Positions 6,984 through 62,005 are shown, numbered from the stretch's first letter. The stretch: 64,000 nt of DNA from an uncultured Planctomycetales bacterium (GCA_964474085.1 CAYYRJ010000002.1:70110-134109), one strand, 5' to 3'. The notes: a model not told the origin generated them from the letters alone. Numbers and translations: made by a program.

Positions 6984-8270
6984 TCACTCCCCTTTTTTAA
7001 AGAAACTTTTAATTGCTGCGCTTAAATCAGCCAAATCTTTTTTGGTGTGCATGCTGCAAATAAAAAACGCTTCCAAATCCGCCGGCGGCATGTAAATCCC
7101 ATTTCCCAACAAATGCCAAAACAGTTTGGCATAAATCTCGTCGCTGGCCGCCTTGCGGGCATCATCATAATTTTTAACCGACTTATCCGAAAACCGGATA
7201 CTTAACATTCCTTTATAATGAGAAAGCCGCACGGCAATATTGTTCTGGGCAAAGAAATTATTAAGGTCTTGGGCAAAATGTTCTGACTTTTCATTTAAGA
7301 CACGATAAAAATCCGCATTAAGCAGTTTCAAGCTCGCCAGCCCAGCACGCATGACAACCGGATTGCCCGCAAATGTTCCAGCCTGATACACACCGCCTAA
7401 AGGCGCTAAACACTGCATAATCTCTTTTTTCCCGCCATAAGCTCCGACGGGAAACCCGCCGCCGATGATTTTGCCCAAACAGGTCAAGTCGGGCACAATA
7501 CCATAATCAGCCTGCGCACATCCTAAACTACTGCGAAAACCGCTCATGATCTCGTCGAAAATCAAAACGATTCCATATTTTGCCGTTATCTGACGCAGGG
7601 TTTTCAAAAAATCTTTGTCGGCTGGAATAACACCCATATTGCCGGCGACCGGCTCGATGATCACACAGGCAATATGCTCTTTATGCCGCTCAATGGTTTC
7701 AAGCAAAACTTGTGTATCATTATAGGGAAGACTTAGAGTGTTTTCGATATGGCTTTTAGGAATGCCTTGGCTGGACGATTGTGCGAGATTAGCAACACCG
7801 GAACCAGCGGTGGTCAATAAATCGTCAAAATGCCCATGATAACAGCCGTCAAATTTAACCACCAAATTTCTTTTTGTAAAGCCGCGGCTTAAACGAATAG
7901 CGCTCATCGTCGCCTCAGTGCCGGAATTGACAAAACGAACCAGTTCGATCGACGGCACAGCACGGGTAATAAATTTGGCCATGTCGATTTCAGCCCGTGT
8001 CGTCGTGCCAAAACTTGTTCCCCTCTCAACAGTCTTTTTGGCGGCAAGAATAGCGTTGCGCGGGCTGTGCCCTAAAATTAGCGCGCCCCACGAAAGACAG
8101 TAATCGCTATAGCCGTTGCCGTCGACGTCAAAAAGTTTTGGCCCCTTGCCGTACTCCATAACCAAGGGACTTCCCGCCACTCCTTTAAACGAACGGACAG
8201 GGCTGTTGACACCGCCGACTAACACTTTTTGCGCGTCTGAAAAATGTTCTAACGATTTTTTGCAAGCCAT
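6984..8270 (-). CDS. hemL: glutamate-1-semialdehyde 2,1-aminomutase
   Basis: 428 aa class-III aminotransferase with a HemL-like N-terminus (...FSDAQKVLVGGVNSPVRSF...). Confidence 0.85.
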   Translation of the reverse strand: MACKKSLEHFSDAQKVLVGGVNSPVRSFKGVAGSPLVMEYGKGPKLFDVDGNGYSDYCLSWGALILGHSPRNAILAAKKTVERGTSFGTTTRAEIDMAKFITRAVPSIELVRFVNSGTEATMSAIRLSRGFTKRNLVVKFDGCYHGHFDDLLTTAGSGVANLAQSSSQGIPKSHIENTLSLPYNDTQVLLETIERHKEHIACVIIEPVAGNMGVIPADKDFLKTLRQITAKYGIVLIFDEIMSGFRSSLGCAQADYGIVPDLTCLGKIIGGGFPVGAYGGKKEIMQCLAPLGGVYQAGTFAGNPVVMRAGLASLKLLNADFYRVLNEKSEHFAQDLNNFFAQNNIAVRLSHYKGMLSIRFSDKSVKNYDDARKAASDEIYAKLFWHLLGNGIYMPPADLEAFFICSMHTKKDLADLSAAIKSFFKKGE

Positions 8271-9217
8271 GGAAGAATCTCTTGGGTATGGTAACTGATA
8301 ATAATGTCCGCGCCGGCGCGTTTGATCGCGGTCAAACTTTCTAAAACAATGTCCTGTTCATTGATCCATTTCTTCTGCGCGGCAGCCTTGACCATCGCAT
8401 ACTCGCCGCTGACATTATAGGCGGCAATGGGAACATCTAAATTTTGACGCAACAAACTGACAACGTCTAAATAAGCCAAAGCCGGCTTGACCATAACGAT
8501 ATCCGCCCCTTCACTTATATCCTGCCGGGCTTCCTTGAGCGCTTCGCGGCTGTTGGCAAAATCCATCTGATACGTTTTGCGATCGCCAAAAGACGGGGTT
8601 GAGTCAGCTGCCTCGCGAAACGGTCCATAATAGGCGGAAGCGTATTTGACCGCGTAAGATAAAATCGCTGTGTCCGCAAAATTATTGTCTTCAAGAGCCT
8701 CCCGGATTGCCGCAACACGAAAATCCATCATGTCCGACGGGGCAACGATGTCCGCGCCAGATGCAGCGTGGGAAATGGCCATCTTAGCCAACAGAGGGAG
8801 TGTTTTGTCATTATCAATCTTTTCCCCATCCAGAATCCCGCAATGGCCATGTTTGGTGTAAGCACATAAACACACGTCCGTAAGAATCAAAAATTGAGGA
8901 AATTCTTTTTTAATTTGGCGAATTGTTTTTTGGACGATACCGTTTTCGCTATAGGCCTGACTGGCCAAAGCGTCTTTTTCTTTTGGCAGGCCAAAAAACA
9001 AGCCAGAGGACCCACCCAATTTGATATATCTTTCGATTTCTTTTAAAAGCAGATCCGCGGTAAACCGGTAAATTCCCGGCATAGAAAAGATCTCTTCCTT
9101 GCGATTGCGTCCTTCGATGACAAAAAAAGGCTGTATCAGCTCGTCGGGATTCAGGCGGGTTTCGCGAACAAGTGATCGGATAGCTTTATTTTTTCGTAGT
9201 ATGCGGTAACGGGACAT
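8249..9217 (-). CDS. hemB: porphobilinogen synthase (delta-aminolevulinate dehydratase)
   Basis: 322 aa with the HemB segments ...AILSYAVKYASAYYGPFREAADS... and MVKPA... Adjacent to hemL. Confidence 0.85.
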   Translation of the reverse strand: MSRYRILRKNKAIRSLVRETRLNPDELIQPFFVIEGRNRKEEIFSMPGIYRFTADLLLKEIERYIKLGGSSGLFFGLPKEKDALASQAYSENGIVQKTIRQIKKEFPQFLILTDVCLCAYTKHGHCGILDGEKIDNDKTLPLLAKMAISHAASGADIVAPSDMMDFRVAAIREALEDNNFADTAILSYAVKYASAYYGPFREAADSTPSFGDRKTYQMDFANSREALKEARQDISEGADIVMVKPALAYLDVVSLLRQNLDVPIAAYNVSGEYAMVKAAAQKKWINEQDIVLESLTAIKRAGADIIISYHTQEILPWLAKNR

Positions 9218-9377
9218 AAATTCAATTTTAGTAGTAGGAAACAGGCATGGCTGTTCTCTACCTTATGATGCACAGGCAAGTATATTATAGCTTTGTATTG
9301 ATAGCAAGAACTTCACTGACAACTTTCCAATTACCTCCCCCAACACCTTGAATAAAAGTAAATACCGTCGATTTCCC

Positions 9378-10904
9378 TTAACGAATATAGCGCTTTTTTA
9401 TGCGGCCGTGATTATCCATAAAAGGACCTGCATTCATACCATAGGTCTGTATAAATGGTTTTACCGCCTGCGGATATTCTTCTTGAGCTTTTTTGTAATC
9501 CGCGCTTAACTTGGTCAGCTCTGACGACAAAACAAGGTGCAGTTTTTCTTCAACAGCAGACTTCTGCGTGATATCTAAAAGTTCAAATTCAAAAAACGGG
9601 CGGGGATTCTTTCCCTCATCTTCCATTAGGGACAAAGCAAACGAATTAATATTCTTAGCTAATAATGGATCAGAATAAACAATACTTTCAATATCCTCTG
9701 GATAAATATTGGCTCCCATAACTGATACAGTGCTGTCTTTTCTACCGTAAATAAACAAAAAAGGCAAATACCACCGCGGATAATTGCATGATCGTTCTAA
9801 TTTTACAATGTCGATATTATGCGCACGTAAAATTTTTGCCATATCATCAAAAGTGATCATCCCACCCTCATCTTTGATGTTGTAGCGAATCCGGGGAGAA
9901 AGCGTCCACGGCTTACTGATTGTGACAATAATTTCGCGATCGACAATTTCAACAAAATGATCCAGCGGATTATATTGAAACAGCATCGGGATCCTGTGAT
10001 CATCGCCAAAAAGTGCTTTTTTAAGGATCGGATCATTTTGACAAAACTTACGAATCATAACTGTTAAAGGATTTTCCCCGCCAATGCCAATCTCCAAATC
10101 CGATGCGCCATAACCGGAAAACACGGTCTTAGCATATTGCAACAAATAATCACGCAAACCCTCAGACATTCCCTCTCCGCCGACAACAGCATGAATTTCG
10201 TAGTCCTTCCACAGGAATCCTTGCTTTTGACCTTCATCAAAAAGATATTTTAAAAACGGCGGATAACCATTAAGAATGTACGGATACTTATTACCAAAAA
10301 ATTGTAAAGTGCGCAGAATTTTGTCAATATCCGGGCCCGTCGATTTGACAACTCCCAGTCCTTGTGCCGCCAAGGCCATATTAAATCCAGTAGCCCATGC
10401 TCCCATACTAAAAGTATTAAGCACAATAAATTTTTTATTACCAAAACAATACCGCAAATACACGCCAATCAAGTTTTTGACGATTTCTCTTTCCTGTTGG
10501 CTTCTGACCCAATTATAGGGAATGCCTGTTGAACCGGATGACTCGTCGATCACAACGCCTTCAAAAAGGAATTCTCCCTGCAAACAGCGCTGCTCGGTTG
10601 AGAATGGAAGAATATAGTTAGCCTTATCCATGACTGGCAAAGTTTTAAATAGTTCATTGGCATTTTTTGTAATAGGTTCCCAATTGCAGCGATCAAGAAA
10701 AGTTTTGTAAGCCGGCACATTGCGATAGGCGATAAGAAATTCTTTAAACGCGCGATAACAACAAGCTTTTGCCCCATATTTTTGTGGGGCATGGCCAACG
10801 ATAAAAGAAAAAATCGGATAATTCTTTAAAATACCCGACTGGACATGATCAATAAGACTAATAAACAAAATACAAAGTCGATCAATAAACCTAATCTTAA
10901 GCAT
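9378..10904 (-). CDS. adenylate-forming enzyme of the phenylacetate-CoA ligase / coenzyme F390 synthetase-like family
   Basis: 508 aa with a SSGSTGIP AMP-binding P-loop-like motif and PaaK-family size. Substrate unknown. Confidence 0.55.
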   Translation of the reverse strand: MLKIRFIDRLCILFISLIDHVQSGILKNYPIFSFIVGHAPQKYGAKACCYRAFKEFLIAYRNVPAYKTFLDRCNWEPITKNANELFKTLPVMDKANYILPFSTEQRCLQGEFLFEGVVIDESSGSTGIPYNWVRSQQEREIVKNLIGVYLRYCFGNKKFIVLNTFSMGAWATGFNMALAAQGLGVVKSTGPDIDKILRTLQFFGNKYPYILNGYPPFLKYLFDEGQKQGFLWKDYEIHAVVGGEGMSEGLRDYLLQYAKTVFSGYGASDLEIGIGGENPLTVMIRKFCQNDPILKKALFGDDHRIPMLFQYNPLDHFVEIVDREIIVTISKPWTLSPRIRYNIKDEGGMITFDDMAKILRAHNIDIVKLERSCNYPRWYLPFLFIYGRKDSTVSVMGANIYPEDIESIVYSDPLLAKNINSFALSLMEDEGKNPRPFFEFELLDITQKSAVEEKLHLVLSSELTKLSADYKKAQEEYPQAVKPFIQTYGMNAGPFMDNHGRIKKRYIR

Positions 10905-12983: not shown

Positions 12984-13886
12984 TCACTGTCCTAAAGGCT
13001 CTGAAGGCGGCTGGGGAAAGTGTCCTTCCAAGGCTTGTTCAATAATATCTTTGACCTCGTCGCTAAAATCCTGTTTGAGAATCCACTCCAAATACGGCCG
13101 ATCTGTTTTAGCGATCTCCTGCAAACTTGTTTTGCGCGCGTATTTGCCAAACATCATATACAATTCGCCATTCCACCAGCGCAACTTGCGATCAACGTCA
13201 TAAAATTCAGTTTGTTTGCGATAATTAAAATCTTTGAGCGCTTCAATGGTTTCGTTGCCAGCCCCGTATTTTTGGACTTGCGCACAGAGGACATCCAGCG
13301 TCGCTTGCGTATCCGCTAAAGCTGAATGCGCATCTTTTAATTCTTTGTGGCAATAAAACGCGTATGCCGCCGACAAATCGCGGCGTTCATGCAGATGATA
13401 CACTTTCTGGGCATCATAAATACTGCGCTTGGCCCAATCAAACTTTATGCCGCATTCATTAAATTCGCGCTCCAAAAGCGGCAAGTCAAAACGCTCGACA
13501 TTAAAACCGCCCAAATCCGCATCTTCCAAAAAACGAAAGACCTGTGGGGCAATATCGCGAAACCGCGGCGCATCTTTGACATCCACGTCCTTAATACCGG
13601 TCACTTGCGTCACCTGCGAGGGAATCGGCATCCCGGGATTAACATACGATTCATACGTCGTTCGTGTCCCGTCGGGAAAACAGCGGATCATCGCAATTTC
13701 AATAATCCGGTCTTTTTCGATCCACACTCCGGTTGTCTCCAAATCTAAAATCACAAGCGAGTTCACAAGCTTCATCGCATACTCCACATCTTTTTTATCT
13801 TCCGGCCTTCCATTAAAATCGAGGCTCAACTGCTTTTCCATAATGTTTGCCATTGCCTTCACAAAACAGGATTTAAAAATCGGCAT
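12984..13886 (-). CDS. DnaQ-like 3'-5' exonuclease (DEDDh family)
   Basis: Has the LVILDLETTG Exo I motif and HSALADTQA Exo III motif. Confidence 0.75.
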   Translation of the reverse strand: MPIFKSCFVKAMANIMEKQLSLDFNGRPEDKKDVEYAMKLVNSLVILDLETTGVWIEKDRIIEIAMIRCFPDGTRTTYESYVNPGMPIPSQVTQVTGIKDVDVKDAPRFRDIAPQVFRFLEDADLGGFNVERFDLPLLEREFNECGIKFDWAKRSIYDAQKVYHLHERRDLSAAYAFYCHKELKDAHSALADTQATLDVLCAQVQKYGAGNETIEALKDFNYRKQTEFYDVDRKLRWWNGELYMMFGKYARKTSLQEIAKTDRPYLEWILKQDFSDEVKDIIEQALEGHFPQPPSEPLGQ

Positions 13887-13921
13887 TGATTATACACGAA
13901 AAGATTCCCGAGCTGATAATA

Positions 13922-13940
13922 AATTTATGCCTAATAAATT
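13922..13940. promoter_or_regulatory. perfect 7-5-7 palindrome AATTTAT-gccta-ATAAATT in the divergent promoter upstream of the Rrf2 gene; candidate Rrf2 operator
   Basis: Read directly from the sequence. It lies about 50 nt upstream of the Rrf2 start. Confidence 0.4.
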
Positions 13941-13987
13941 AAAAAACCGCTTGTCACTTTTTTATTTATGGATAAAATAGTCCACAA

Positions 13988-14446
13988 TTGGAGACAAATA
14001 TGTTTAAATTATATTCTCAAAAATGCGCTTATGTCCTTCAGGCTTTATCGTCGATTCCCTTGAAGAAAGCCAACGAAACGTTTACCGCGACATCGCTTTG
14101 CCAGCAGGCAGACGTTCCCGAGTCTATTACCCGAAAAGCCCTGCAAACTCTGTCGCAAGCCGGGTACCTGGAAACCGTCACAGGCCCGACGGGTGGATAC
14201 AAATTTAAAAAAGCGCCAAAAAATATTACGGTCCTCGAAATTATTTCGGTCATTGAAGGAAAAGATTCCTACGACCAATGCATCATGGGTTTGGCCCAAT
14301 GCCATGAACAAAACCCCTGCCCTATGCACACGATGTGGATGCAAATGAAAGGATGCATGTTTAAGACCTTAGAGGGCATGACCCTTGAGCATTTACTTAA
14401 AATCAAAAAAATCCAATTAAAGAAGAAAGGAGTTGTTCATGGTTGA
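13988..14446 (+). CDS. Rrf2-family transcriptional regulator with a three-Cys cluster-binding motif (NsrR/IscR-like)
   Basis: N-terminal Rrf2 wHTH (YVLQALSSIP...TATSLCQQADVPESITRKALQTLSQAGYLETVTGPTGGYKF) and a C-terminal CHEQNPCPMHTMWMQMKGC region. Confidence 0.8.
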   Translation: METNMFKLYSQKCAYVLQALSSIPLKKANETFTATSLCQQADVPESITRKALQTLSQAGYLETVTGPTGGYKFKKAPKNITVLEIISVIEGKDSYDQCIMGLAQCHEQNPCPMHTMWMQMKGCMFKTLEGMTLEHLLKIKKIQLKKKGVVHG

Positions 14447-14987
14447 TACCAATGTTGTACTTACCGGACAGACATTTCTCTATACATTTTACGTTGTGGT
14501 TGTTCTCTTTATTATGGGGTGGTTTAGCTATGCCGTCACCCATGATCAAAAAACAACAGCTGTCCCTGCTGCCTTTTTTTACTCTTTTGCCGCATTTTTA
14601 GTCATCTTAGGCGTCAGCCTTCATATTGTGACGTATCACACAATTCCATGGAAAGAGATGGACCTAAACCGCGCCAAAATCAAGGCCGACAAAATTTTTA
14701 AAATCACGGTCGCAAACCACAAATTTAACCTCCCTTCTGAAAAACTTCTGGCCAAAACCAATGAAAAAGTCCTTTTTGAAGTTACTTCCGCGGATTTGAC
14801 CTATGGATTTGGCCTGTTTCGCGAAGACAACTCTATGGTTTTTCAAATGCAGGTGATGCCCGGGCACATGAACGATATCCTCTGGCAGTTTAGCAAGCCG
14901 GGTGTTTTTTCGATACGCTCGACGGAGTATTCCGGGCCTTCTGGGATTGGCATGATCGAAAAAAATGTCGTTGTCGTAACGGACTAA
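14433..14987 (+). CDS. heme-copper-oxidase subunit-II-like protein (two TM helices plus cupredoxin-like domain, no CuA or heme-c motifs)
   Basis: Two N-terminal TM helices, then a beta-rich periplasmic domain. It has no Cys pair (no CuA H..C.E.C..H.M) and no CXXCH. It overlaps and precedes the subunit-I-like gene. Confidence 0.55.
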   Translation: MFMVDTNVVLTGQTFLYTFYVVVVLFIMGWFSYAVTHDQKTTAVPAAFFYSFAAFLVILGVSLHIVTYHTIPWKEMDLNRAKIKADKIFKITVANHKFNLPSEKLLAKTNEKVLFEVTSADLTYGFGLFREDNSMVFQMQVMPGHMNDILWQFSKPGVFSIRSTEYSGPSGIGMIEKNVVVVTD

Positions 14988-15008
14988 CATAAATTCTTAA
15001 CTTACCCA

Positions 15009-16646
15009 ATGGGAGCGTCTATGAACAATTTTCTAAAAACTCTACTCTCAGGAAACGAAAGTTTGTTTAAACCCGACAGCTTAACGCCAATGCAAAAAAT
15101 GACTTTGCGTTTTGTCGTTATCGGCTTGGTCTATTACGCTTTTGCGGTCATCGAAGGGATGCTCATGCGCATCTATCAAATCACGCCGATCTCAATTATC
15201 CCGCCGGGACAATATTTTGCAATTTTGACCGCGCATCCTTTAGTAGGAATTTTTGGCTCGACGTATTCAATAGTCTTTGGCGCTTTTCTTTTTTTAGTGC
15301 CGCTTTTGATGAATAAGCCGCTGTGGAGCATCAAATTGGGCAACTGGACTTGTGCTCTTCTTGCGATCGGAACCTTTACATTTTGGTCGGCCGGCTTTCT
15401 TACCCATTATGCGCCGCTATATACCTTATATTGGCCACTGCCGGCTGACTTTACCCAATTTAGTGTCGTCGGCGGAATTTTCTTTGTTACCGGGATTGCT
15501 TTGGTCATGGCAGGAACCGTGTGTTTTGTCGTCAATATTTTCAAAACGATCACCTACACGCCGCAAGGCATGGAAAAACAACCGGCGAAAGAGTTGCTCG
15601 CCTCTGCGCTAGGGTTAACCGGACTTATCAATCTTTTTTCAAAAAATAAAAAAGAACATTTGGTCTCTCTCCCCGTTGCGGCTATCGCACGCGGGACAAT
15701 TGACACAGCTCTTAATTCGATTGTCATCCTCTTTGCCGGCGTCTTAATCCTTGTTTATATGTTTGCTGAACTTTTTGGCCACAGCCTAAAACATTCGGCC
15801 GTTGACGCGCTTTTATATAAAAATTTCTTCTGGTGGGGACTTGATTTAGTCGCCGACGGATTGGTCTTAATTTACGTCGCTGGAACATGGTATCTTTTGG
15901 CGATGCTCATCACTGGAAAAAATTTATTTATGCAAAATATCGCCCGCGCGGCTTTATTTGTCGAAATGGTCGTCTCGTGGACTGTTTGGTCGCATCATTT
16001 GATGTCAGACCAAGCACAACCGGGAATTCTCAAAGTTGTTTCCGGCGAGATGGTCACCGCTTTCGAGCTGATTACCCAAGGGCTGGCTTTCTTTATTACC
16101 TTAGCGACTCTTTGGAGCGCAAGACCTTTAAAAATGACCAATCCGCTCAAATTTCTTTTAGGCGGACTTTTGGGCTTTGCGCTGGCGGTCCCGGCTGGAA
16201 TTATTCAAGCGGACTTGGGGCTAAATCGTATCCTTCATAATACTCAGTGGATTGTCGGCCCGCATGTTCACGTCGCTGTTTTGGTCGGATTGACGATGAC
16301 ACTCTACGCGGCGATTTATTATCTGCTGCCAATTTTGACAAATGGCGCAAAACTCTACAGCCAAAAACTGGCCAATTTTCATTTTTGGGCGCATTTGCTC
16401 GGCGGAATCGGGATGGGCGCGTTTATGGGAATGGCCGGCTTGCGAGGAATGCTGCGACGGACAATTTATTTTCAAAATGAGTACCAGCCTTTTATGATCT
16501 TAGCCGGCTTGTCAGGAACATTGCTACTGTTGGCGTTCTTGGCCTTCTTTTATAATATCGTGATGACCGTCGGAGTTAAAGGCGTTATTGGGATCTTTAT
16601 GCCGTCAAAATTAAAGACAAAAGATCTTCTGCCGGCAAAATCGTAA
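15009..16646 (+). CDS. heme-copper oxidase superfamily catalytic subunit I homolog (candidate nitric-oxide reductase)
   Basis: 545 aa and polytopic. All six canonical His ligands are identifiable: helix II LTAHPLVGIFG...FLFLVP (compare HG..M.FF..P), helix VI LFGHSLKH, helix VII WSHHLMSD and helix X GPHVHVAV. The Tyr of the A-type HPEVY motif is missing. Confidence 0.7.
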   Translation: MGASMNNFLKTLLSGNESLFKPDSLTPMQKMTLRFVVIGLVYYAFAVIEGMLMRIYQITPISIIPPGQYFAILTAHPLVGIFGSTYSIVFGAFLFLVPLLMNKPLWSIKLGNWTCALLAIGTFTFWSAGFLTHYAPLYTLYWPLPADFTQFSVVGGIFFVTGIALVMAGTVCFVVNIFKTITYTPQGMEKQPAKELLASALGLTGLINLFSKNKKEHLVSLPVAAIARGTIDTALNSIVILFAGVLILVYMFAELFGHSLKHSAVDALLYKNFFWWGLDLVADGLVLIYVAGTWYLLAMLITGKNLFMQNIARAALFVEMVVSWTVWSHHLMSDQAQPGILKVVSGEMVTAFELITQGLAFFITLATLWSARPLKMTNPLKFLLGGLLGFALAVPAGIIQADLGLNRILHNTQWIVGPHVHVAVLVGLTMTLYAAIYYLLPILTNGAKLYSQKLANFHFWAHLLGGIGMGAFMGMAGLRGMLRRTIYFQNEYQPFMILAGLSGTLLLLAFLAFFYNIVMTVGVKGVIGIFMPSKLKTKDLLPAKS

Positions 16647-16652
16647 AATCGT

Positions 16653-18704
16653 TTACTCTTTAAGTTTTAAACGGTAAACAGAACCAGCATACCGCAGAGC
16701 GTACAAATATTTCCCGTCGGGGCTAAAGGCCATCGCGGCCATCCCAGCCCCGTCGGGAAGATCCGCATTTATCTCTTTAAAATTTTCGCCGGCGTCAGCA
16801 CTTAAATAAATCTTTCCCGCTGCTCCCGCGCCCCACAGAACGCTAGCGACAGCGATTGTTTTTTCGTCCGTCGGGTCAAACGCTAAAGCATCTGCAGCAC
16901 CAGCGGCAACTAAATTCTTTAATTTTTTCCACGTTTCTCCGTGATTAAACGAAACAAAAACAGCCGCGCCCCCCATATCCCCAGCGGCATAAACAACACC
17001 ACTAGGCGTTACCATAAGATCAAAAACCCAAGTCATTTCTTTAAGCGTCAATCGCCATGTTTTGCCACCGTCGGACGAAACATAAACGCCACCACCTTTG
17101 CCGCAAGCGCCCCAAAAAATCCGATGCGAATCGGTCGGGTCAACCGCCAAAGCATTATAAATCCGCAAACTTCCCGGCTGGCCAACCGAACGCGCCCAAT
17201 TGTATCCACCGTCCTGCGAAACAAAAAGTCCGCCGCCATCGTCCCCGTCGACACCTAAATAAATTTTATTGGAATCCTTAGGATCAAACGTCAAGCCCCT
17301 TGGATAACCCTGTCCCCACATCGTGTTTTGCGTTGGACGATTTTGGGGCAAGCCTTGCCTGACAATTTTAAAATTAACTCCGGCATCCTCACTGACAATG
17401 ATTTGATTAACAGCCTGATTCCACGGGGATGAAGTCGCAACGATTCTGTTTTCGGCTGGAACAATCACCCGCCAAACATGACCAGCTTTAGCGGCATCAT
17501 ATCCAATCGACGGAAAAAGCGGCTGATAACTTTTGCCGCCATCGGGACTTTTTAAAAGGCCATTGTCCATCGTTGCGACGAACAACGAATCTTTTGTCAC
17601 GCTGATATCCGAACCAACCGAATTGGGCGCGCCGCGGATTTTTTCATTCCACGTTTTTCCCCCGTCGTCACTACGAAAAACGCCCCACCAATCGCTGCGA
17701 AAAATCACCTGACTATCAAAAGGATCAGATTTAAGTGACGTGATCTTACCGTTTAAATTAGCCCACGCACGGGTTGGATTCGCTTGGCGATCCGGCGTTA
17801 TTTTTTCAACCAGATTTTGCCAAGTCCCACCTTCATCTTCCGAAACAAGAATTTTTCCGTTCCAATCCTGGTTAACGGCCGCAAAAATCTTTTTTCCAGC
17901 AAACGCTAAACGAAATATTTTGCCATCATGTTTTCCTGCGGACTTTTGCCATGACACTCCCGCATTATCAGAAATCCATAGCTCTCCACCGGCTGCCGCA
18001 TAAAAACGGCGTGGGTTATTTGGAGAAACCCAAAAATCCGTCAAATCTTTTAACAAAATATCGACCGATGACCATTTTTGTGCCAAAAAATCATAACTTT
18101 GCAAGCCGGAAGAACCTCCGGCAAATAGCCGATTCTCATCTTCTGCCCAAAAAATGACCGTTAACTTCTGCGCTTGACCAAGCGCCAATGCTTGCCAATG
18201 ATTAGCGCCATCCGAAGAACAAAAAACTTGACCCGCCGCTGTTGCGATACAAACCTTTAAAGGATCTTTGGAAGAAACAGCAATCGGCCGGTAACTTTGC
18301 GGACGTTCAAATTTGATTTGCTTATTCAAATGATTAGCCGCTGACCACGACTGTCCGGCATCGAGAGAGACATAAATTCCCCCCGCTGTCGCAGCGTAAA
18401 GCATATTCGAATCTGATGGAGCAATCGCCAGAGCCGCAACGTTGAGATTTTTCAAACCCCTCGTGACAAAACGCCAATTTTCGCCCTGATCATCACTGCG
18501 CCAAATTCCGGCGACATCAGAGGTCAAATAGACACGGCCTTTGACACTTGGATCAGGCTCTATATTAGGGAAGCACCCCCCCGCTTGCCAACCGACAAAC
18601 TCCCATGACGCAGTTTGCGCGTTGGCAGCAGTAAAGAAAAATCCGGCAAAAAACGAAAAGGAAAGAAAAAAAATCCGCAGCACAAAAAATTTCATAATTG
18701 GCAT
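16653..18704 (-). CDS. secreted BNR/Asp-box repeat protein (Ycf48/sortilin-like beta-propeller)
   Basis: At least 12 S-x-D-x-G-x-(T/S)-(W/F) motifs (SDDQGENW, SLDAGQSW, SSDGANHW, SDNAGVSW, SEDEGGTW, SDDGGKTW, SQDGGYNW, SSDGGKTW...). Signal peptide begins at MPIMKFFVLRIFF. Confidence 0.75.
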   Translation of the reverse strand: MPIMKFFVLRIFFLSFSFFAGFFFTAANAQTASWEFVGWQAGGCFPNIEPDPSVKGRVYLTSDVAGIWRSDDQGENWRFVTRGLKNLNVAALAIAPSDSNMLYAATAGGIYVSLDAGQSWSAANHLNKQIKFERPQSYRPIAVSSKDPLKVCIATAAGQVFCSSDGANHWQALALGQAQKLTVIFWAEDENRLFAGGSSGLQSYDFLAQKWSSVDILLKDLTDFWVSPNNPRRFYAAAGGELWISDNAGVSWQKSAGKHDGKIFRLAFAGKKIFAAVNQDWNGKILVSEDEGGTWQNLVEKITPDRQANPTRAWANLNGKITSLKSDPFDSQVIFRSDWWGVFRSDDGGKTWNEKIRGAPNSVGSDISVTKDSLFVATMDNGLLKSPDGGKSYQPLFPSIGYDAAKAGHVWRVIVPAENRIVATSSPWNQAVNQIIVSEDAGVNFKIVRQGLPQNRPTQNTMWGQGYPRGLTFDPKDSNKIYLGVDGDDGGGLFVSQDGGYNWARSVGQPGSLRIYNALAVDPTDSHRIFWGACGKGGGVYVSSDGGKTWRLTLKEMTWVFDLMVTPSGVVYAAGDMGGAAVFVSFNHGETWKKLKNLVAAGAADALAFDPTDEKTIAVASVLWGAGAAGKIYLSADAGENFKEINADLPDGAGMAAMAFSPDGKYLYALRYAGSVYRLKLKE

Positions 18705-18852
18705 TTTAACACAAAATATTTTCGAGACTAAAATTGAAACGGATATTATCACCAATCAAAAATATTTCATTGACTTTTAGCCGCTTAACTTTATATTGAC
18801 GTTACATTGTCCAAAGATTTGGATATTCAACAAAATGTTTACGGAGAAACTT

Positions 18853-19425
18853 ATGAAAAGAATCCTTCTCCTGGCCTTTGGCGCTGTATTAATTCTTGGT
18901 TCCAAAGCCAGCGCACTCGACGATAGAACCGCCTACATGGTTCGCGAAAACAACAGTTCCACCTTAAGTTTGGATGAAAACCAGAATTATAGCTATAATT
19001 CTGGCGAAACGCCTTGGGTTTACGTTAAATTCAGTTTTCCGCATATTTCTCAAACAAGACCGCTCTACCTAAAGTGGACTTGGACTTCTCTTGATAATTC
19101 TATAAGCATTGAAACTCCAAAAGAAAAAATACCAATGACCGGCTCTGATTTTCAAATCGGCAAAGGCGTCTGGAACTCGCCGCCAGAATCCTGGTGGAAC
19201 GATAACGGTGGCCCCGGGCAATGGCATGTCGATTTGACGTGGTTTAATGATCCGACCCCCAATATTGTAACCTCAGCGGATTTTACAGTTTGCCGTCAAG
19301 GCGGAATTATCATGCGTCAGGCAAGTTGCGGACCGATCGTCACTCCCGAACCATTAAGTACGACACTTTTTTTGCTCGGCGGCGTGCCAATACTTGCCGG
19401 CCTAAGAAAAAAACGTGTCCGATAA
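18853..19425 (+). CDS. PEP-CTERM-anchored secreted protein (exosortase substrate)
   Basis: Signal peptide (MKRILLLAFGAVLILGSKASA). The C-terminus ...VTPEPLSTTLFLLGGVPILAGLRKKRVR has a PEP motif, a hydrophobic helix and a basic tail. Confidence 0.8.
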   Translation: MKRILLLAFGAVLILGSKASALDDRTAYMVRENNSSTLSLDENQNYSYNSGETPWVYVKFSFPHISQTRPLYLKWTWTSLDNSISIETPKEKIPMTGSDFQIGKGVWNSPPESWWNDNGGPGQWHVDLTWFNDPTPNIVTSADFTVCRQGGIIMRQASCGPIVTPEPLSTTLFLLGGVPILAGLRKKRVR

Positions 19426-19451
19426 AACCGCAATCCGATCATTTCACAAAT

Positions 19452-20294
19452 ATGCCCAGCGGAAAATACTTTAAATATCTTCCCGCGACTCTGCCGTGGA
19501 TACTCTTAGGCGTTCTTTACGCTCCGGTCTTCTACATTCTTTATAAAGAACGCTGGGAAATGATCGATTACGGCCATGCGCCTTTTATTTTGCCGATTGC
19601 CATTTTTATCGTCTGGCTTAAACGAAAATCATTACTGAGTGTCGCAAAAAATTCCCAATCCACATTTTATTTTCCCGGTTTTATTCTGATTCTCGCCGGC
19701 GCTTTTCTATTTGCGTTTGGCTGGCGCTGGGACTATCTTTTGATCCAAGTGCTTTCCATTTTTCCACTTTTGCTGGGAATGTTACTCTTTTTTTACGGGT
19801 CCCAAATGATACGGCAGCTCATTTTTCCGATTCTCTATCTTTTTCTTTTGGTCCCCCCTCCTCTAGGAATTTTAGACAGCATCACTTTGCCAATGCGGCA
19901 TTTAGCGTCCGCATCCGCAGGATTTATCCTTAAAACATTTCATTATCCCGTATCAAGATCCGGACTGCTTTTGTATTTGGGAGATCACGAAATATTTTTA
20001 GGCGCCCCTTGCAGCGGATTTCGGTCGCTGATTACCATGTTTTCGCTGGGACTGATTTATGTTTACTTTAACAAGGGAAAATTTTCCAAAAACCTGATCC
20101 TCGTGCTCTGCATTGTACCTTTAGCCTTATTCGGAAACATGCTCCGCGTCGTTGCGATCTGCCTGTTAACGTTTTATTTTGGTGAAAAAGTCGGCCAGGG
20201 ATTTTTGCATGAATTTAGCGGAGTTGTCGTCTTTTTGATCATGTTGGCCGGACTTATGGGGCTGGAACGACTTTTAAGAGAACCCAAAAAATGA
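19452..20294 (+). CDS. exosortase (EpsH/XrtA-like)
   Basis: Polytopic membrane protein of about 280 aa directly after the PEP-CTERM gene and before EpsI. The start is moved to the ATG at 19452 because the track ORF overlaps the upstream gene. Confidence 0.75.
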   Translation: MPSGKYFKYLPATLPWILLGVLYAPVFYILYKERWEMIDYGHAPFILPIAIFIVWLKRKSLLSVAKNSQSTFYFPGFILILAGAFLFAFGWRWDYLLIQVLSIFPLLLGMLLFFYGSQMIRQLIFPILYLFLLVPPPLGILDSITLPMRHLASASAGFILKTFHYPVSRSGLLLYLGDHEIFLGAPCSGFRSLITMFSLGLIYVYFNKGKFSKNLILVLCIVPLALFGNMLRVVAICLLTFYFGEKVGQGFLHEFSGVVVFLIMLAGLMGLERLLREPKK

Positions 20295-20941
20295 AAAACC
20301 TGAAATTTTATATCACATCATTGATTCTGGTCATAACAATCTTGATTTCTTTTGCACTCCCACGGCAAAAATATCAGGGAACATCTATTTTGCAGAATAT
20401 TAATATACCTCTGACCCTTAGTGACCAATGGCAAAGCGTTGACTATTCGATGAATTTGTCGACGACAAAAGATGACCGGTTTAATTTTTTAAGCGGCGCC
20501 TTTGCCCGTATTTACGGCACACGTGAAGGCCGCAGTCTTTTGCTTTTGATTTTGGACGCAGGGAATTTTCATCATCCACAGCTCTGTTATGGAAGTTCAG
20601 GTTTTAAAATCAAGGAATTAGACGAAACGCTCCTGCAAACGCAAAACAAAACGCTAAAGGTCAAAACGTTCGTAGCACAAAAAAATGCGCAAAATGGCGA
20701 GGCAATTGTCGTCATGTTTTGGATGGTCATCAATAAAGAAAAAGTCGATTGGACTGAACAAAAACTTACGCAATTATGGCATTCATTATTTAACAAAAAG
20801 CAAGTTGGCCTGATGACCCGTCTGGATATCCCGGCTTCGGACGGTCAAATTGACCAAGCGATCGAGTACGGGCAAAGATTCATTCGCGACTTAGGCGGCG
20901 CAATGCCGACTGAAAAGCAAGAATGGATATTTGGCAAATAA
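20291..20941 (+). CDS. exosortase-associated EpsI-family protein
   Basis: 216 aa with one N-terminal TM helix. There is an ATGA overlap with the exosortase gene. Size and placement match EpsI. Confidence 0.65.
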   Translation: MKNLKFYITSLILVITILISFALPRQKYQGTSILQNINIPLTLSDQWQSVDYSMNLSTTKDDRFNFLSGAFARIYGTREGRSLLLLILDAGNFHHPQLCYGSSGFKIKELDETLLQTQNKTLKVKTFVAQKNAQNGEAIVVMFWMVINKEKVDWTEQKLTQLWHSLFNKKQVGLMTRLDIPASDGQIDQAIEYGQRFIRDLGGAMPTEKQEWIFGK

Positions 20942-21055
20942 CGCAAAATCTTTCTGTTTGACATTTTCCCTACCTTAACTTATTATCCAATCATCCCCAG
21001 CTATTACCCCAATGGCTATTTAAAAATATTGTTTAACCTTCCGATCGAGGTGCCA

Positions 21056-24000
21056 ATGTCTAAATTTTTTAGTTTTACAACAAAATTCTTCCTGACACTT
21101 TTTTTTGTTTGCACGCTCACCCTTTTTTCTCCCCAACTACAAGCAACTGCCGTTCTTCCGGCGCCGACACTTAAAAGCGCAATTGGCGGGATTGGAAAAG
21201 TTACCCTCGCCTGGGACAAAGTCCCTGACGCGACAAGCTACACTATCAAATACGGCACGACATCCAACATGATTGATTCGACGGTTACCGGGGATGTCAA
21301 TACGTTTGCTGTCAGCGGCTTGGCTAACAGCACGATATATTATTTTGTAGTAGTGGCCAAGAATGCGACCAGCACAAGCGCCTACTCGCGCCAGATGAGT
21401 GCTAGAACGCAACTTCCGCCGCCTTTTTTAAGCGGTGCCAGCGGGGGAATTGGAAAAGTTGTCCTGACTTGGGAAAAGGTTCCCGGCGCAACAAGCTATA
21501 TCGTTAAATACGGCACGACATCGCTAAATTATCCAACCGTCCTTAGCGTCGCGGATGTCAATACATTTACGGTCACCGGCTTGGCCAATGATACGAGCTA
21601 TTATTTTGTTGTTGCCGCAAAGAATTCTTTAAGTACAAGCATTAACTCGCGGCAGATGACCGGCAAAACGTGGGGACCGACAGCTGCATTACCCAAACCG
21701 ACGGTAAACTTTTCGGCTAATCCGACGGCAATCAAAAGCGGCGAATCGACCAAGCTCACATGGACGTCAACGAATGCGACTTCTCTATATATTGATAATG
21801 CCATAGGTGCCGCTTCGGATCACGGGACGCTTAGTGTTTTCCCTAAAGTCACAACGACCTATACAATTACCGCAACCGGCGCTTTAGGTTCTGCCAATGC
21901 CAAAGTAACGGTTTATGTGACGGCAACGCCAACGGCACAACCGCAGGGGACCTTTGGCTCACAGTACAAAGACATCATCCCTCAAGATGCGACGGTCAAA
22001 GAATACGCGGTCAAACGCTTTGCTATTATTCGCGGAGAAGTCAAAGACAAAAATAATCTGCCGCTCTCCCAAGTTAGCGTTTTTATCGACGGACACCCTG
22101 AGTATGGGACGACCAAGACCGACACAAGCGGCCAATTTTCTTTACCCGTTGACTTAAACGGGACACTTAATATCAGTTTTGAAAAACAAGGCTTTATTCC
22201 AAGCCACCGGCAAATTTATGTCGCGCCCAACGATGTAGCGATTGTCGAAACGCTCACCTTGCTTAGCGAAGACACCAAAGCCACCGAAGTTGCCCTCAAC
22301 GGCGATGCAAAAAATATCGTTGTCCATCAAAGCACGCCGGTGAGTGATGTTTCCGGCACACGCAGCGCGAATGTCGTTATTACCGGCGACAATAAGGCGT
22401 ACGCTGTTGATGAACACGGCAAAGACATGTTTGAGCTGTCAAAATTAAATGTGCGCGCCACCGAGTTTGCAACACCTGCGTCTATGCCGGCCGCCCTGCC
22501 GCCGACGTCCGCCTTTACGTATTGCGTGGAGCTTAAAGCAGACGGTGTTGATCGGGTCAGGTTTAAAGATCCGGTTGTCGTGTATGTCGACAATTTCTTA
22601 GGGTTTAATGTCGGCGAAATTGTGCCTGTCGGTTATTACGACCGCGACCGAGGGGTGTGGGTGGCTTCTGAGAATGGACGGGTTGTCAAGCTTTTGGATA
22701 CAAATGGGGACACAAAAGTTGATGCCTTAGACAGTACCGGCGACGGTGTCGCGGATGACCTTAACAAAAATGGAGATTATTCGGATGAAGTCAAAGGCCT
22801 AAATGATCCGGCCAAGTATACGCCCGGCAAAACTTTTTGGCGGGTGAGCCTGACACATTTTACTCCGTGGGATTTTAATTGGCCGTTTTGGCCTGAAAAA
22901 AGCGCAATTGGACCCAATGCAAAAGGGAAACCCAATGCAGATCAACAAAAAAATGAAGGTGATGATTGTGACAAGGCAACAAATTCTTTTGTCAATTGCC
23001 GCAGTCGTATTTATCACGAAGACATTGATATCCCGGGCACAGATTTAACATTGCATTATGCCAGCAACCGTGTGCCGGCTTACAAGACCGTGATCACAGT
23101 TCCAGCTAGCGGGGACACGGTTCCCTCTTCGCTTCAAAAAATCGTCGTGAGATTAGATATCGCCGGCCGGACATTTGAACAGACATTGCCGACTTTAGCT
23201 AATCAAACAGCAGAATTTCGTTGGGACGGCCTAGATTATTTCGGTCATAGAGTGGACTCTACCACTGCACATATCACGACAGAATTTGTATATAAAGCAT
23301 TCTATGTGGGGTTTGGAGCAACAGGCGAGCGGGCCCCTGCATTCGGCGAGCCCGGAGTTACGACAACAACCGTTCGCGCTCGGGAAGAATTTATATTTTC
23401 CACAGAACGAAGTATTTTAGTACACAATCAAGCGGAAACACGCGAAAGGTTAGCGCAAGGCTGGACATTATCCAATCACCATTTTATGAGTGCGAGGGAT
23501 GTAAGTACTCTTTATAAAGGAAATGGCGATGTTGTGAGCAATGATGGCTTAAACATAATTACAACTATTGCGGGAACAGGTGAGGCAGGATATAGCGGAG
23601 ATGGCGGTCCGGCAACTGAGGCGAAGTTATATTCTCCCGTTGATGTAGCGGTTGATCAGAGTGGGAATATTTATATTGCGGATTACGTTAATCACCGTAT
23701 TCGCAAAATTGATTTAAACGGTATCATCACGACGATTGCTGGAACAGGTGTGGAAGGATACAGCGGAGATGGTGGCCCGGCAACCGCAGCGGGTATGTAC
23801 CCTTCAGGTTTGGCGGTTGATCTTAACGGGAATGTTTACATTACAGATAATCAGCGAATTCGAAAAATTGATACAAACGGGATAATAACAACTATCGCGG
23901 GGACAGGCGTTTATGGATTCAGCGGAGATGGCGGCCCGGCAACTTTAGCTACATTCAAGAGTCCGACCGGGATAACAGTGGATGCGATTGGGAATATCTA

Positions 24001-27000
24001 TATATCGGATACGAGAAATCAACGTGTTCGCAAAATCAATACCGACGGAATTATTTCAACCATAGCTACGACTCCTAGCAAATATAATAAATCTTATCCG
24101 ACGATGATTACGAGTGATCAAAAAGGCAATATTTATTTTACAGTTTATGGATCTACTGTTTTGGGTATCCCTGTGTACTGTGAAATCTATAAAATTGATA
24201 TAAATGGGGTCAATACTTTAGTAGCTGGGGATTATGTGTCTGGATTTAGTGGCGATGGAGGCCCAGCTAAAAGTGCGCTGCTGCAAAACCCTAACGGAAT
24301 TGCAGTTGATAAGTTTGGTAATATTTATTTCGCCGATACTGGGAATTTACGAACTCGCAAAATTGACATCGATGGCATTATTACGACAGTCGCGGGAACA
24401 GGTGAGCGTGGATACAGCGGAGATGGCGGCTCGGCCACTGCGGCGAAGATAAATCGTCCCTATGGTGTTGCGGTTGATCAGGGCGGAAATATTTATATTG
24501 CGGATTCGGGTAACAACCGTATTCGTAAAATTACTTTGGCAACAGCCTTTGCTCCCGCCGACCCGGGCGATATGACCTTTGCCGAAGAAGGCTTTGGCTA
24601 TACGTTTTCACTCGACGGCAAGCACAAACAAACCGTTGACCTTGATACAAAAAAAATCCTTGAACAATTTGGTTATGATCCGTCAGGGCGGTTGATTTCA
24701 TCAACGGATTCTTTTGATAATAAAGTCACGATTGAGCGTAATGCCTCTGGTGTGCCGACGGCAATCGTCTCCCCCGATGGCGTGCGGACAAACCTGACCA
24801 TCGATGCCAAAAACCATTTAACACAAATCACCTATCCCGACGGTAAATCCTACAATTTTGAGTACACGCCCGGCGGCCTTTTGACCAAGGAAACGGAGCC
24901 TAAGGGAAACTTTTTTACGCACACCTTTGACGCAAACGGTCGGATTACCGATGTCCTCGACCAAGAAGGCGGGCACGAAAAGTTTGGCCGAAAGGTTGAT
25001 GTCAATACCGGGGACGTCACAACAACTGTGACCAGTGGAGAAGGCGATGTTGTGACGTACGTGGACCAAACAGCATCGACCGGCGCTTTGACTTCGACAA
25101 GCTCGGTGTCCGGTGTGACAAAGCCGACAACCTTTTCGCGCAGCAGCGATGAGCTGACTTCCAAAATCACCTCTCCGGACTTGACTGTCAGTGACCTAAG
25201 CTTTGATCTTGACCCGGAGTATAAATTTAAATATCTTAAGTCACAAACCATCACAACACCCTCGGGACTCAAAGCGCAGGCCACTTTTGCCCGCACCTAC
25301 ATCGACACTAATAGCGACGGCAAAAAAGATCTCATCACCCGCAGCGCGTCGTTAAACAGTAAGTCAACGACACTCACCCATGATGTTTTGACGTCGACTT
25401 TTAAAGCAACGTCCCCGCTTGGCCGGAGTATGACAACCGTTTATGACCCCACGACACTGTTGACCTCTAAGGTGAGCGTCCCTGAGCTGTTTGATACAAC
25501 CTATACGTATGATTTAAAAGGGCGTGTCAAAACTGTGCAGACCTCGACACGGACAATGTCTTTGGACTACGATCTTAATGGCAATGTCGAGTCGATAACA
25601 GATCCGCGAGGCAATCGTACTAGTTACACTTACGATGCCGTCGGCCGGACAACAAAAGTTCATCGGCCCGACTCAACTGAGGTTCATTTTGAGTACGATG
25701 CTAATGGCAATATGACGGTGCTGACTAATCCGTCGAGCCAGAACCACGGTTATATTTACAATGCCGTCAATCTGCCGACGAGTTATGCCCCGCCGATCTC
25801 TCCGGCAACGCAGTATGTTTACGACAAAGAGCGGCGTCTTAAAGAAATCGACTTTCCGTCAGGCAAAAAGATCAAAAATGTTTATACCGGTGTGCTCTTA
25901 ACTCAGACCCAAACGCCTGAGGGAAATGTCGATTATACCTATCTGCCTTCGGGACAATTGGCCAAAGTCACAAAGGGTTCCGAGTCTCTTAACCTTTCGT
26001 ATGACGGCAGTCTTTTAAAGACTGTAACTTCTGCCGGGACACTCGGTCAGACGCTTTCATTAACCTATAACACGGACTTTAAAGTCACCGGTTTGACGTA
26101 TGCCGGGGCGATAAACAGTTTTGGGTACGATAATGACGGACTTTTGACCTCATCGGGTAGATTTACGATTGGCCGCAATGCCCAAAACGGTTTACCGACG
26201 GCTGTTGCTGGTGGAGTTTTAAATTTAACCCGGACGTTTAACGGTTTTGCAGAGCTGTCGACCCAAACGCAAACTGTTAACGGTTCTGCGGCTGCCCTTT
26301 TTGGCTTGACTTACAATCCAAATGGTCAAATCGCAACCAAGAGCGAAACCGTCGCTGGGGTCACATCGAACTACGCCTACACCTACGACGCATTGGGACG
26401 TCTGACAAAGGTCGAAAAAGACGGCGTTCTCGTCGAAGAGTACGGCTACGCCGGCGCTGATCCACTGGGCACGCGCACTTATGAAATGAACACCTTGCGC
26501 GGGATTGCCGGACGCTCTTTGACATACAATGCCGAAGATCAGCTTCTTAGTGTCGGGAGTGCGACGTATCAATATGATACGGACGGATTTTTGTCCAAAA
26601 AGACTGACGGCGCTGCTATAACAACGTACAATTATTCTTCCGCCGGCGAATTATTAAGCGCCTCTTTGCCCGACGGACGGACACTCGAGTATGTCTATGA
26701 CCCGCAAGGTCGACGGATAGCCAAAAAAATTAACGGCGTACTCGTCGAAAAGTATCTCTGGGCGGGATTGACACAGCTCTTGGCTGTCTACGACGGGGCT
26801 GATAGTCTTGTGATGCGTTTCGAATACTCTGATGCGCGCGTACCCAACGCAATGGTCAAGAGTGGCACGACGTATTATTTAAGCTATGACCAAGTCGGGT
26901 CATTGCGTGCCGTGTATGATGCGACAGGTGCTCTGGTTAAACGCATCGATTATGATTCGTTTGGAAATATCCTCGTCGACACAAATCCGGCGTTCTCTCT

Positions 27001-33660: not shown

Positions 33661-33864
33661 TTATTATACCCACCCTATAGAAGTAGAGTAATCGGGACCG
33701 TGGTAGACTCTAAATTAACTGAACCGTCTTTTCATAAGAATTGGCTCCTTTTGTTTGAGCTCAATTCTACACAATTTGGTCAATTTTGTTAACTGGGGTC
33801 AGTATACAGCTATTACCCCAATGGCTATTTAAAAATATTGTTTAACCTTCCGCTCGAGGTGCCA

Positions 33865-62001: not shown

Positions 62002-62005
62002 GGCT

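Follow-up and report, generated by a model that had tools for sequence, protein, structure and literature searches.

A candidate gNOR-family enzyme operon with its own Rrf2 regulator in an uncultured Planctomycetales bacterium

Introduction

The window analysed here is a 64,000-nucleotide stretch of DNA from an uncultured Planctomycetales bacterium (GCA_964474085.1 CAYYRJ010000002.1:70110-134109). Three open reading frames (ORFs), identified by ORF calling, run in one direction across positions 13988-16646 and encode a Rrf2-family regulator followed by subunits II and I of an enzyme of the heme-copper oxidase (HCO) superfamily. On balance, we consider it probable that 13951-16646 is a single operon, rrf2-gnorII-gnorI, which supplies a gNOR-family enzyme together with its own regulator. 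A preliminary description of the same DNA had proposed a candidate new family of nitric oxide (NO) reductases. Its more general proposal, a non-oxygen-reducing HCO branch with a cupredoxin partner devoid of CuA, is supported, and gNOR was among the comparators that it named. The novelty of the family is not, since the published definition of gNOR (PMC11214002, PMC8756737) is matched feature by feature. The locus is an additional member of an already proposed family and is not a new family.

The gNOR family was reportedly described by Sievert et al. 2008 and by Hemp & Gennis, and is treated by Murali et al. 2024. It is related to the B-family and, alone in the HCO superfamily, has an active-site His exchanged for Asp; CuA residues are missing from its cupredoxin subunit, and the enzyme, a predicted NO reductase, may be quinol-dependent (PMC11214002). 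At the position of the active-site Tyr, Asp is found in gNOR, Asn in sNOR and CuANOR, Gln in eNOR, and Glu in cNOR and qNOR (PMC8756737, appendix table derived from Hemp and Gennis). The family has been stated to occur in both Bacteria and Archaea (10.1101/2021.10.15.464467), and a preprint mentions a His-to-Glu change of a heme ligand in gNOR (10.1101/592808).

Gene layout

The operon comprises the following genes:

14000..14446, plus strand: rrf2, a 148-residue Rrf2-family winged-helix regulator, with its ATG at 14000
14439..14987, plus strand: subunit II, 182 residues, with two transmembrane helices and a cupredoxin domain and no CuA site
15021..16646, plus strand: subunit I, a 541-residue catalytic subunit of the heme-copper superfamily, very probably of the gNOR type

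ORF calls and domain searches confirmed the three co-directional genes that the preliminary description had placed here. GGAG lies at 13990-13993, seven bases 5' of the rrf2 ATG. The ATG of subunit II at 14439 is preceded by AAGGAG and overlaps the rrf2 stop by 8 nt, and GGAG at 15012-15015 precedes the ATG of subunit I at 15021. This last start gives 541 residues, in agreement with database gene calls, and corrects the length of 545 residues reported earlier. The three genes are translationally coupled.

Active site of subunit I

Subunit I has a Pfam COX1 match with an E-value of 4.9e-53 (181 bits against a cut-off of 34.8). Its AlphaFold2 model, with a predicted local distance difference test score of 80 and a predicted template-modeling (TM) score of 0.83, shows a helix-rich fold that was matched by Foldseek to solved subunit I structures in the PDB at TM scores of 0.7-0.76. 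The homologue search returned more than 3000 homologues. An active-site alignment was built from 238 full-length members, of which 120 belong to the window's own clade (the 120 closest homologues are all at least 80% identical) and 118 to a sister clade at ~43% identity. The sister clade was found by a second homologue search using the 46%-identical P0123, and it includes Thermoprotei, Methanomethylicia, Chloroflexota, and Actinobacteria. Residue numbers follow the 541-residue protein, and the relevant positions are:

15234-15236, plus strand: H72 in helix II, second ligand of the low-spin heme
15831..15857, plus strand: helix-VI motif W271-x3-D275-x3-D279 (FWWGLDLVAD), in place of W-x3-H-x3-Y
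15993..15998, plus strand: H325-H326 in helix VII, the two remaining His ligands of the non-heme metal
16263..16271, plus strand: H415 and H417 in helix X, axial ligands of the high-spin and low-spin hemes
15780..15794, plus strand: HSLKH, a variable stretch and not a ligand

W271, D275, D279, H72, H325, H326, H415, and H417 are invariant in 238/238 sequences, and the family signature of helix VI reads LYKNxFWWGLDxxADG. The W-x3-D-x3-D register was recognised because an alignment to yeast COX1 exposed it: D275 falls, ungapped, on the CuB His and D279 on the cross-linked Tyr of LFWFFGHPEVY (LYEHLFWFFGHPEVY). MAFFT alignment to the nearest non-family sequences, which are B-like with LWFFGHPVVY, gave the same register. 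D275 sits four residues after W271, where A-, B-, and related families carry His, and it is the conserved Trp that anchors the assignment of D275 to the position of the CuB His and of D279 to that of the Tyr. An alternative from hhalign, with a six-residue insertion beside a five-residue deletion in helix VI, was judged less plausible than the MAFFT register with its one-residue gap; the ligand positions hold neither His nor Tyr in that alignment too.

The remaining ligands align with known enzymes. H325-H326 match the HH of all A- and B-like comparison sequences, H415 and H417 match the H-x-H of COX1 and CcoN, and together with H72 the latter two make up the three heme ligands kept in subunit I. 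A Tyr in helix VI or VII that might substitute for the cross-linked one was sought in the family alignments and none was seen. With D275 and D279 invariant and helix VI lacking both His and Tyr, five of the six canonical His ligands are therefore kept, the sixth is replaced by Asp, and the Tyr is replaced by Asp as well.

These assignments revise the preliminary description, which had listed all six His ligands. The five in helices II, VII, and X are present and invariant, and the sixth is Asp275. The loss of the helix-VI Tyr was correctly noticed, at D279 rather than at the residue named in HSLKH; Asp occupies this position throughout the alignment. The assignment of LFGHSLKH to helix VI was a misalignment, as the family alignments place that helix at FWWGLDxxADG. 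HSLKH was rejected as a source of ligands: H254, already variable in an alignment of 18 close homologues, is V/T/H/Y/I/S, with His in 24/120 of the closest homologues and in 0/118 of the sister clade, and H258 is His in 103/120 and Pro in 114/118 sister-clade sequences.

Residues outside the metal sites were compared in the same alignment. In a check of quinol-site residues, for which those of cytochrome bo3 are not confidently mappable, E45 and R50 in helix I were invariant, and Q64 was conserved only in the window's clade (clade 1) and mostly His in the sister clade (clade 2). T346, E349, and T352 on helix VIII are also invariant.

Subunit II

Subunit II consists of two N-terminal hydrophobic helices and a cupredoxin-like C-terminus, and contains zero Cys and no CXXCH. 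A Pfam search gave no match and NCBIfam a weak one to CoxB (4e-7). When solved structures were searched with a profile of 16 orthologues, the best relatives were Thermus thermophilus ba3 subunit II and its isolated CuA domain (E 5e-6 to 3e-4). The CuA ligands H/C/C/H/M of ba3, which we take to be H114, C149, C153, H157, and M160, align to Y/S/S/G/M; four of the five are replaced and the Met is kept. Two stretches of subunit II, DLTYGFGLFR and IRSTEYSG, are invariant. By sequence and by the ba3 alignment, the protein had thus been described correctly as a two-helix and cupredoxin layout without Cys, CuA, or CXXCH.

A cupredoxin subunit II without CuA ligands is also found in Escherichia coli cytochrome bo3 (CyoA/CyoB), which is a precedent for direct quinol oxidation by subunit I, and bo3 structures are among the Foldseek matches of subunit I (TM 0.71-0.74). 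Cytochrome bo3 differs in that it belongs to the A-family, reduces O2, and has both the His3-CuB site and the His-Tyr cofactor intact.

Placement in the heme-copper superfamily

The published defining features of gNOR are all found at this locus: the COX1 fold, the replacement of His by Asp with the five other His kept, Asp at the Tyr position, a cupredoxin subunit without CuA, and affinity to the B-family (PMC11214002). Occurrence in both Bacteria and Archaea, with many anoxic or sulfidic sources, is a further likeness. In a neighbour-joining tree, with comparison sequences labelled A-, B-, or C-like by motif only, the Asp/Asp family was monophyletic with 100% bootstrap and lay among A- and B-like sequences, away from C-like ones. 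Phylogenetic placement, which the preliminary description had suggested as a check, puts the family as one group on the A/B side. In a library at 50% identity, only two full-length clusters of the Asp/Asp family were found (75% and 46% identity). The next full-length relatives of subunit I are 25-31% identical and have GHPVVY-type motifs; profile-profile comparison with these relatives by hhalign gave a probability of 100% (E 8e-59, 469 columns). Placement by Foldseek was tried and set aside, as all top matches were A-family subunits I at similar TM scores and A could not be separated from B. We are confident that subunit I is a gNOR, a membership set by the defining features and not by clustering with reference gNOR sequences (Sulfurimonas denitrificans, DAMO_1118).

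Several related families share part of this architecture. The bNOR (qCuANOR of Bacillus azotoformans) and sNOR enzymes are NO reductases that likewise derive from the B-family, lack the active-site Tyr, and have a cupredoxin as subunit II. In them, however, all three His and the CuA site are kept and the Tyr position is taken by Asn, whereas here His and Tyr are both replaced by Asp and CuA is lost (PMC8756737). The cNOR and qNOR enzymes resemble the present one in the proposed conversion of 2 NO to nitrous oxide (N2O), in a heme next to a non-heme metal with a carboxylate, and, for qNOR, in quinol as the presumed donor. They differ in belonging to the C-family branch, with FeB held by three His and a Glu and with a NorC cytochrome c subunit or its fused remnant, whereas subunit I lies on the A/B side and has a cupredoxin partner. 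A cNOR-related 'N2O reductase' of the HCO type was considered for its Bacteroidota host and was rejected on the same two grounds, the cupredoxin subunit II and the tree position.

The nearest outgroup of the family in the neighbour-joining tree was P0223 (462 residues, Logan assembly), which has ALRFYLQ in helix VI and HWQHLL in helix VII. This protein, without two of the three non-heme-metal ligands and without the Tyr, is an uncharacterised HCO relative with a more reduced site.

Distribution and cassette-like behaviour

The locus survey covered the best 80 loci, from species-representative genomes, and the hit lists hold the top 80-120 matches. Subunit I is 75-98% identical among metagenome-assembled genomes of several phyla, labelled as Planctomycetales, Ignavibacteriales, Melioribacteraceae, many Bacteroidales, Spirochaetota, Smithella, Chloroflexia, and Elusimicrobia; Draconibacterium and Tangfeifania are also among the labels. 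Subunit II lies 5' of subunit I in 77/80 loci, and a Rrf2 gene directly 5' of subunit II in 54/80, from several phyla. The hosts of the family found here (Planctomycetota, Bacteroidales, Ignavibacteriota, Spirochaetota, Chloroflexota, and Thermoprotei) differ from those originally named for gNOR, and neither the tight linkage to Rrf2 nor the cassette-like spread was found in the gNOR literature searched. The paper on respiration in Melioribacter roseus does not mention the enzyme.

Two loci, L001 and L002, are syntenic with the window well beyond the cassette, Planctomycetales being the window's own lineage. Homology between the window and L003 at the DNA level is confined to 13966-16637, and that between the window and L084 to subunits II and I. 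These limits are the pattern expected of a transferable cassette, which suggests that the rrf2-II-I unit is horizontally transferred. Subunits II and I occur without rrf2 in 26/80 loci and in L084 and L085, the former being 93% identical. In the sister clade, HTH_10, ArsR, or Crp/Fnr regulators are encoded nearby, in one case with hemerythrin and TusA genes. The regulator gene appears to be exchangeable among cassettes.

Some neighbours recur. In ~12 Bacteroidales loci, yeeE-yeeE-rhodanese-rhodanese, the yeeE genes being YeeE/YedE sulfur-transport genes, follows directly 3' on the same strand (L014, L020, L026, L027, L030, L043, L044, L048, L053, L061, and L074; ~7650-10700 in locus coordinates), and ~15 Bacteroidales loci in all carry yeeE/rhodanese genes alongside. 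From this arrangement, the enzyme may be linked in function to the trafficking of sulfur in sulfidic habitats. A second recurrent set is a cupin gene, then a DUF438/hemerythrin/PAS_10 gene, then a DUF1858+DUF2249 gene; one or both of the last two are present in 14/80 loci, 3' of subunit I in L038, L041, L045, L070, and L078, and 5' in L081 and L082 (7019-8781 in L081). DUF1858+DUF2249 is the architecture of Thermus DrpB, from nitrate-respiration clusters, and in Haloferax denitrifying conditions induce DUF2249 genes (PMC6282519, PMC11218638). In the flanks of the 80 loci, none of the nir, nor, nos, nrf, and hcp genes was recurrent.

The Rrf2 regulator

The rrf2 product belongs to the Rrf2 family by Pfam (E 6.8e-28) and by NCBIfam rrf2_super (94.6 bits against a cut-off of 73.3), and lies under every equivalog cut-off in NCBIfam. 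It scored 30.3 bits against the NsrR model NF008240 (cut-off 182), and 54.3 and 38.3 bits against the IscR models TIGR02010 (cut-off 207.55) and NF008110 (cut-off 275). An identity of the NsrR or IscR type thus failed on the equivalog models. The nearest solved structures are RsrR, CymR, and IscR, and domain scans of the window showed no isc or suf genes adjoining rrf2. Its putative cluster ligands are:

14279..14329, plus strand: putative Fe-S ligands C94-x6-C101-x5-C107-x2-H110, within rrf2

The C-x6-C-x5-C-x2-H motif is common to all 50/50 aligned Rrf2 proteins linked to the cassette, among which those of Bacteroidales are only distantly similar to that of the window (E ~1e-15). A Cys3-His pattern is that of IscR. 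The preliminary description had pointed to a three-Cys Rrf2 protein directly upstream, and both the motif and its synteny with the enzyme genes extend well beyond the window. NO-responsive control by this protein is plausible. It resembles NsrR and IscR in its winged helix and C-terminal three-Cys motif, in adjoining a putative NO-detoxifying gene as NsrR often does, and in a candidate operator that overlaps the promoter, as expected for a repressor. It differs from them in scoring far below the equivalog cut-offs, in the C-x6-C spacing, and in an 8-N8-8 candidate operator as against the gATGyAT-N5-ATrCATc of NsrR (PMC1274295).

Promoter and candidate operators

The following elements lie upstream of rrf2:

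13951..13978, plus strand: sigma-70-like promoter, with -35 TTGTCA (13951-13956), a 16-nt spacer, and -10 TAAAAT (13973-13978)
13965..13988, unstranded: candidate Rrf2 operator, an 8-N8-8 inverted repeat TTTATGGA-TAAAATAG-TCCACAAT that overlaps the -10 box
13922..13940, unstranded: exact palindrome AATTTAT-N5-ATAAATT (AATTTAT-GCCTA-ATAAATT)

The promoter is the best promoter-like match in 13800-16800 (10/12). It is kept in L001 and L002, and in L003 with TTGACA as the -35 box. A 24-nt block, TTATGGATAAAATAGTCCA(C/T)AATT (13966-13989), is invariant in the window, L001, L002, and L003, even though the L003 cassette is only 71% identical to the window at the DNA level. In L003 the 8-N8-8 repeat is perfect (ATTATGGA-N8-TCCATAAT). 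Some Bacteroidales loci have the same layout, AAwTGCTA-N8-TAGCAwTT, between the promoter and the rrf2 start, as in the palindrome AATTGCTA-N8-TAGCAATT of L072. We regard 13965-13988 as the better candidate operator on the strength of this conservation, and binding of Rrf2 there would be the natural prediction.

The preliminary description had favoured the AATTTAT-N5-ATAAATT palindrome as the operator. The palindrome exists at 13922-13940 and is beyond chance as a string, as 0/100 shuffles yielded the two matches seen. Its 7-N5-7 geometry is NsrR-like, but it is AT-only, duplicated elsewhere, and not conserved: synteny with L001 (98% protein identity) begins only at 13929, which leaves that locus without the left arm, the right arm carries two changes in L002, and L003 has no such site. 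From these comparisons it is probably not the operator. The exact 15-mer TATGCCTAATAAATT is found at 13926-13940 and again at 54814-54828, in two unrelated intergenic regions, and its second copy precedes a DUF6088 gene (54114-54737, minus strand). The 15-mer could mark a small element that is repeated or prone to recombination, or else a shared site for another factor. The breakpoint of synteny between L001 and the window, at 13929, falls within the first copy.

A CRP/FNR-type box, TGTGA-N6-T(C/A)ACA, was found in 18/50 loci, mostly at a fixed distance of 72-81 nt 5' of the rrf2 start (for example L023, L025, L033, L037, L040, L055, and L077), and is absent from the window's own promoter. The position of this box before the rrf2 promoter mirrors that of enterobacterial hcp promoters, in which an FNR site is followed by an NsrR site (PMC1274295).

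Proposed mechanism

In the model that we favour, the carboxylate-rich 2-His/Asp site would bind Fe and not Cu, in the manner of FeB in cNOR and qNOR. Electrons would be delivered by menaquinol rather than cytochrome c, because neither CuA nor a heme c offers an entry point. The enzyme would then catalyse 2 NO + 2e- + 2H+ -> N2O + H2O, mainly as a detoxification in these mostly non-denitrifying anaerobes, and T346, E349, and T352 may line a proton path from the cytoplasm. Rrf2 would hold an Fe-S cluster on C94/C101/C107/H110, and its holo form would bind the palindrome at 13965-13988 over the -10 box and repress its own operon. If NO or another oxidant damaged the cluster, the regulator would be released and the operon derepressed.

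Several points weigh against this model or parts of it. When solved structures were searched, first with subunit I by itself and then with a profile of its family, only weak partial matches appeared, to cbb3 CcoN, which ranked at the top and was covered in helices IX-XII only, and to yeast COX1; no cNOR or qNOR chain was among them, and they were of no use for placing the family. Membership in gNOR is argued from the defining features rather than from direct clustering with the reference enzymes. The His-to-Glu change of a heme ligand (10.1101/592808) was not seen, the three heme His being invariant in 238/238 sequences; a Glu directly follows H417 in 42/118 sister-clade sequences and may be what that preprint meant. 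The reduction of NO by gNOR is itself proposed by analogy (PMC11214002), and no nir, nos, hcp, or nrf genes occur within the 64-kb window. The regulator is far below the NsrR cut-off and its ligands look IscR-like, so that its signal could be O2, reactive oxygen species, or Fe-S status. Finally, the yeeE/rhodanese neighbours hint at a link to sulfur that the NO model does not explain.

Alternative explanations

The alternative that survives best, though we hold it to be unlikely, keeps the gNOR-type architecture and changes the substrate. The enzyme would be a quinol-dependent reductase of O2 (by two electrons), H2O2, N2O, a sulfur or nitrogen oxyanion, or a persulfide-related species in anaerobes of sulfidic habitats, and Rrf2 would sense general oxidative or Fe-S stress. 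gNORs are biochemically uncharacterised (PMC11214002), which leaves room for such a substrate, and the lack of denitrification genes nearby and a regulator that fails the NsrR model and has IscR-like Cys3-His ligands would fit it. So would the co-directional yeeE-yeeE-rhodanese genes directly 3' and the TusA and hemerythrin genes near a sister-clade gene, but all the sulfur-gene neighbours come from related Bacteroidales genomes and do not count as independent cases. The DrpB-like and hemerythrin/PAS neighbours point instead to the sensing of N-oxides or O2 (PMC6282519, PMC11218638). In addition, cNOR and qNOR reduce NO at a heme combined with a carboxylate-bearing non-heme metal, and a synthetic model compound built after the gNOR site was able to reduce NO (PMC11214002). 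NO reduction by a gNOR-type enzyme is preferred.

Less likely still, and in our view improbable, is a truly new HCO family in which an Asp-containing site arose by convergence with gNOR. It draws on the comparison by published features, on the missing His-to-Glu change, and on the original gNOR hosts (Sulfurimonas, Sulfurovum, Persephonella, and NC10), which are not among the organism names in the matches listed. This last point carries little weight, as those matches are the top 80-120 only. Every published defining feature of gNOR is present, and the Asp/Asp family, like gNOR as described (10.1101/2021.10.15.464467), occurs in both Bacteria and Archaea. Moreover, with only two Asp-motif full-length clusters at 50% identity and the next relatives at 25-31%, there is little room for a second Asp-type family in the vicinity. 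An ordinary O2-reducing B-type quinol oxidase that scavenges trace O2 in anaerobes, for which the B-like GHPVVY relatives outside the family, the ba3-like subunit II, and the generic source annotation as cytochrome c oxidase subunit I would speak, is very unlikely. The cross-linked Tyr and its His partner are both replaced by invariant Asp, neither helix VI nor helix VII showed a Tyr that could stand in for them, and only the Met is left of the five CuA ligands of ba3. Four-electron O2 reduction in the HCO superfamily is held to need the His-Tyr cofactor (PMC11214002).

Other features of the window

The operon is flanked by unrelated genes in the opposite direction: a DnaQ-like exonuclease upstream (12984-13886, minus strand) and a BNR/sortilin-repeat protein downstream (16653-18755, minus strand). 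A terminator scan 3' of subunit I gave no convincing terminator, and the end of the convergent gene is 6 nt away. Elsewhere the window contains hemL, hemB, an exosortase, RHS/YD-toxin fragments, and genes for polysaccharides and toxin-antitoxin systems, with no genes of the nitrogen cycle among them. hemL (Aminotran_3) and hemB (ALAD), at 6984-9217 on the minus strand, lie 5-7 kb upstream of the heme enzyme, which is probably coincidental. A polymorphic-toxin locus is probably made up of two giant ORFs (2207 and 2415 residues) and an RHS/YD-shell fragment with the nuclease toxin domain Tox-REase-7 (21029-27652, 28593-29678, and 33838-41085, plus strand); an exosortase/DUF3485 pair (19290-20941) lies upstream of it. 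A glycosyltransferase/Wzy polysaccharide cluster is interspersed with an AbiEii toxin gene, two Fic/DOC genes, and the DUF6088 gene (43653-44456, 51816-52778, 54114-54737, and 61405-62034, minus strand).

Biological significance

What is new here is the corrected assignment of the active site, the conservation of a Rrf2-gNOR cassette across phyla, and a better operator candidate. The public label 'cbb3-type cytochrome c oxidase subunit I' on subunit I is misleading. D275, D279, H325, and H326 are now pinned as active-site residues for mutation. Most copies of the module are accompanied by a dedicated, putatively Fe-S-binding Rrf2 regulator, and with a conserved candidate operator in hand the regulatory signal (NO, O2, or Fe-S stress) is open to direct testing.

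A bolder and rather speculative extension may also be considered. The rrf2-II-I unit could be a self-contained mobile detoxification cassette that circulates among strict anaerobes across phyla, with Rrf2 as a new sensor subclass that has its own 8-N8-8 operator. Such a cassette would either make non-denitrifying fermenters and bacteria of sulfidic habitats hidden producers of N2O, or have a 2-His/2-Asp site that uses a substrate other than NO. The sulfur-transfer genes appended to the operon in some Bacteroidales are a hint at the second option.

The two-gene enzyme module is highly conserved, with 75-98% identity across at least six phyla. Such conservation points to strong selection and to recent horizontal transfer between anaerobes outside the classical denitrifiers. 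Like several other proposed NO reductases, gNOR would widen the range of organisms that produce N2O.

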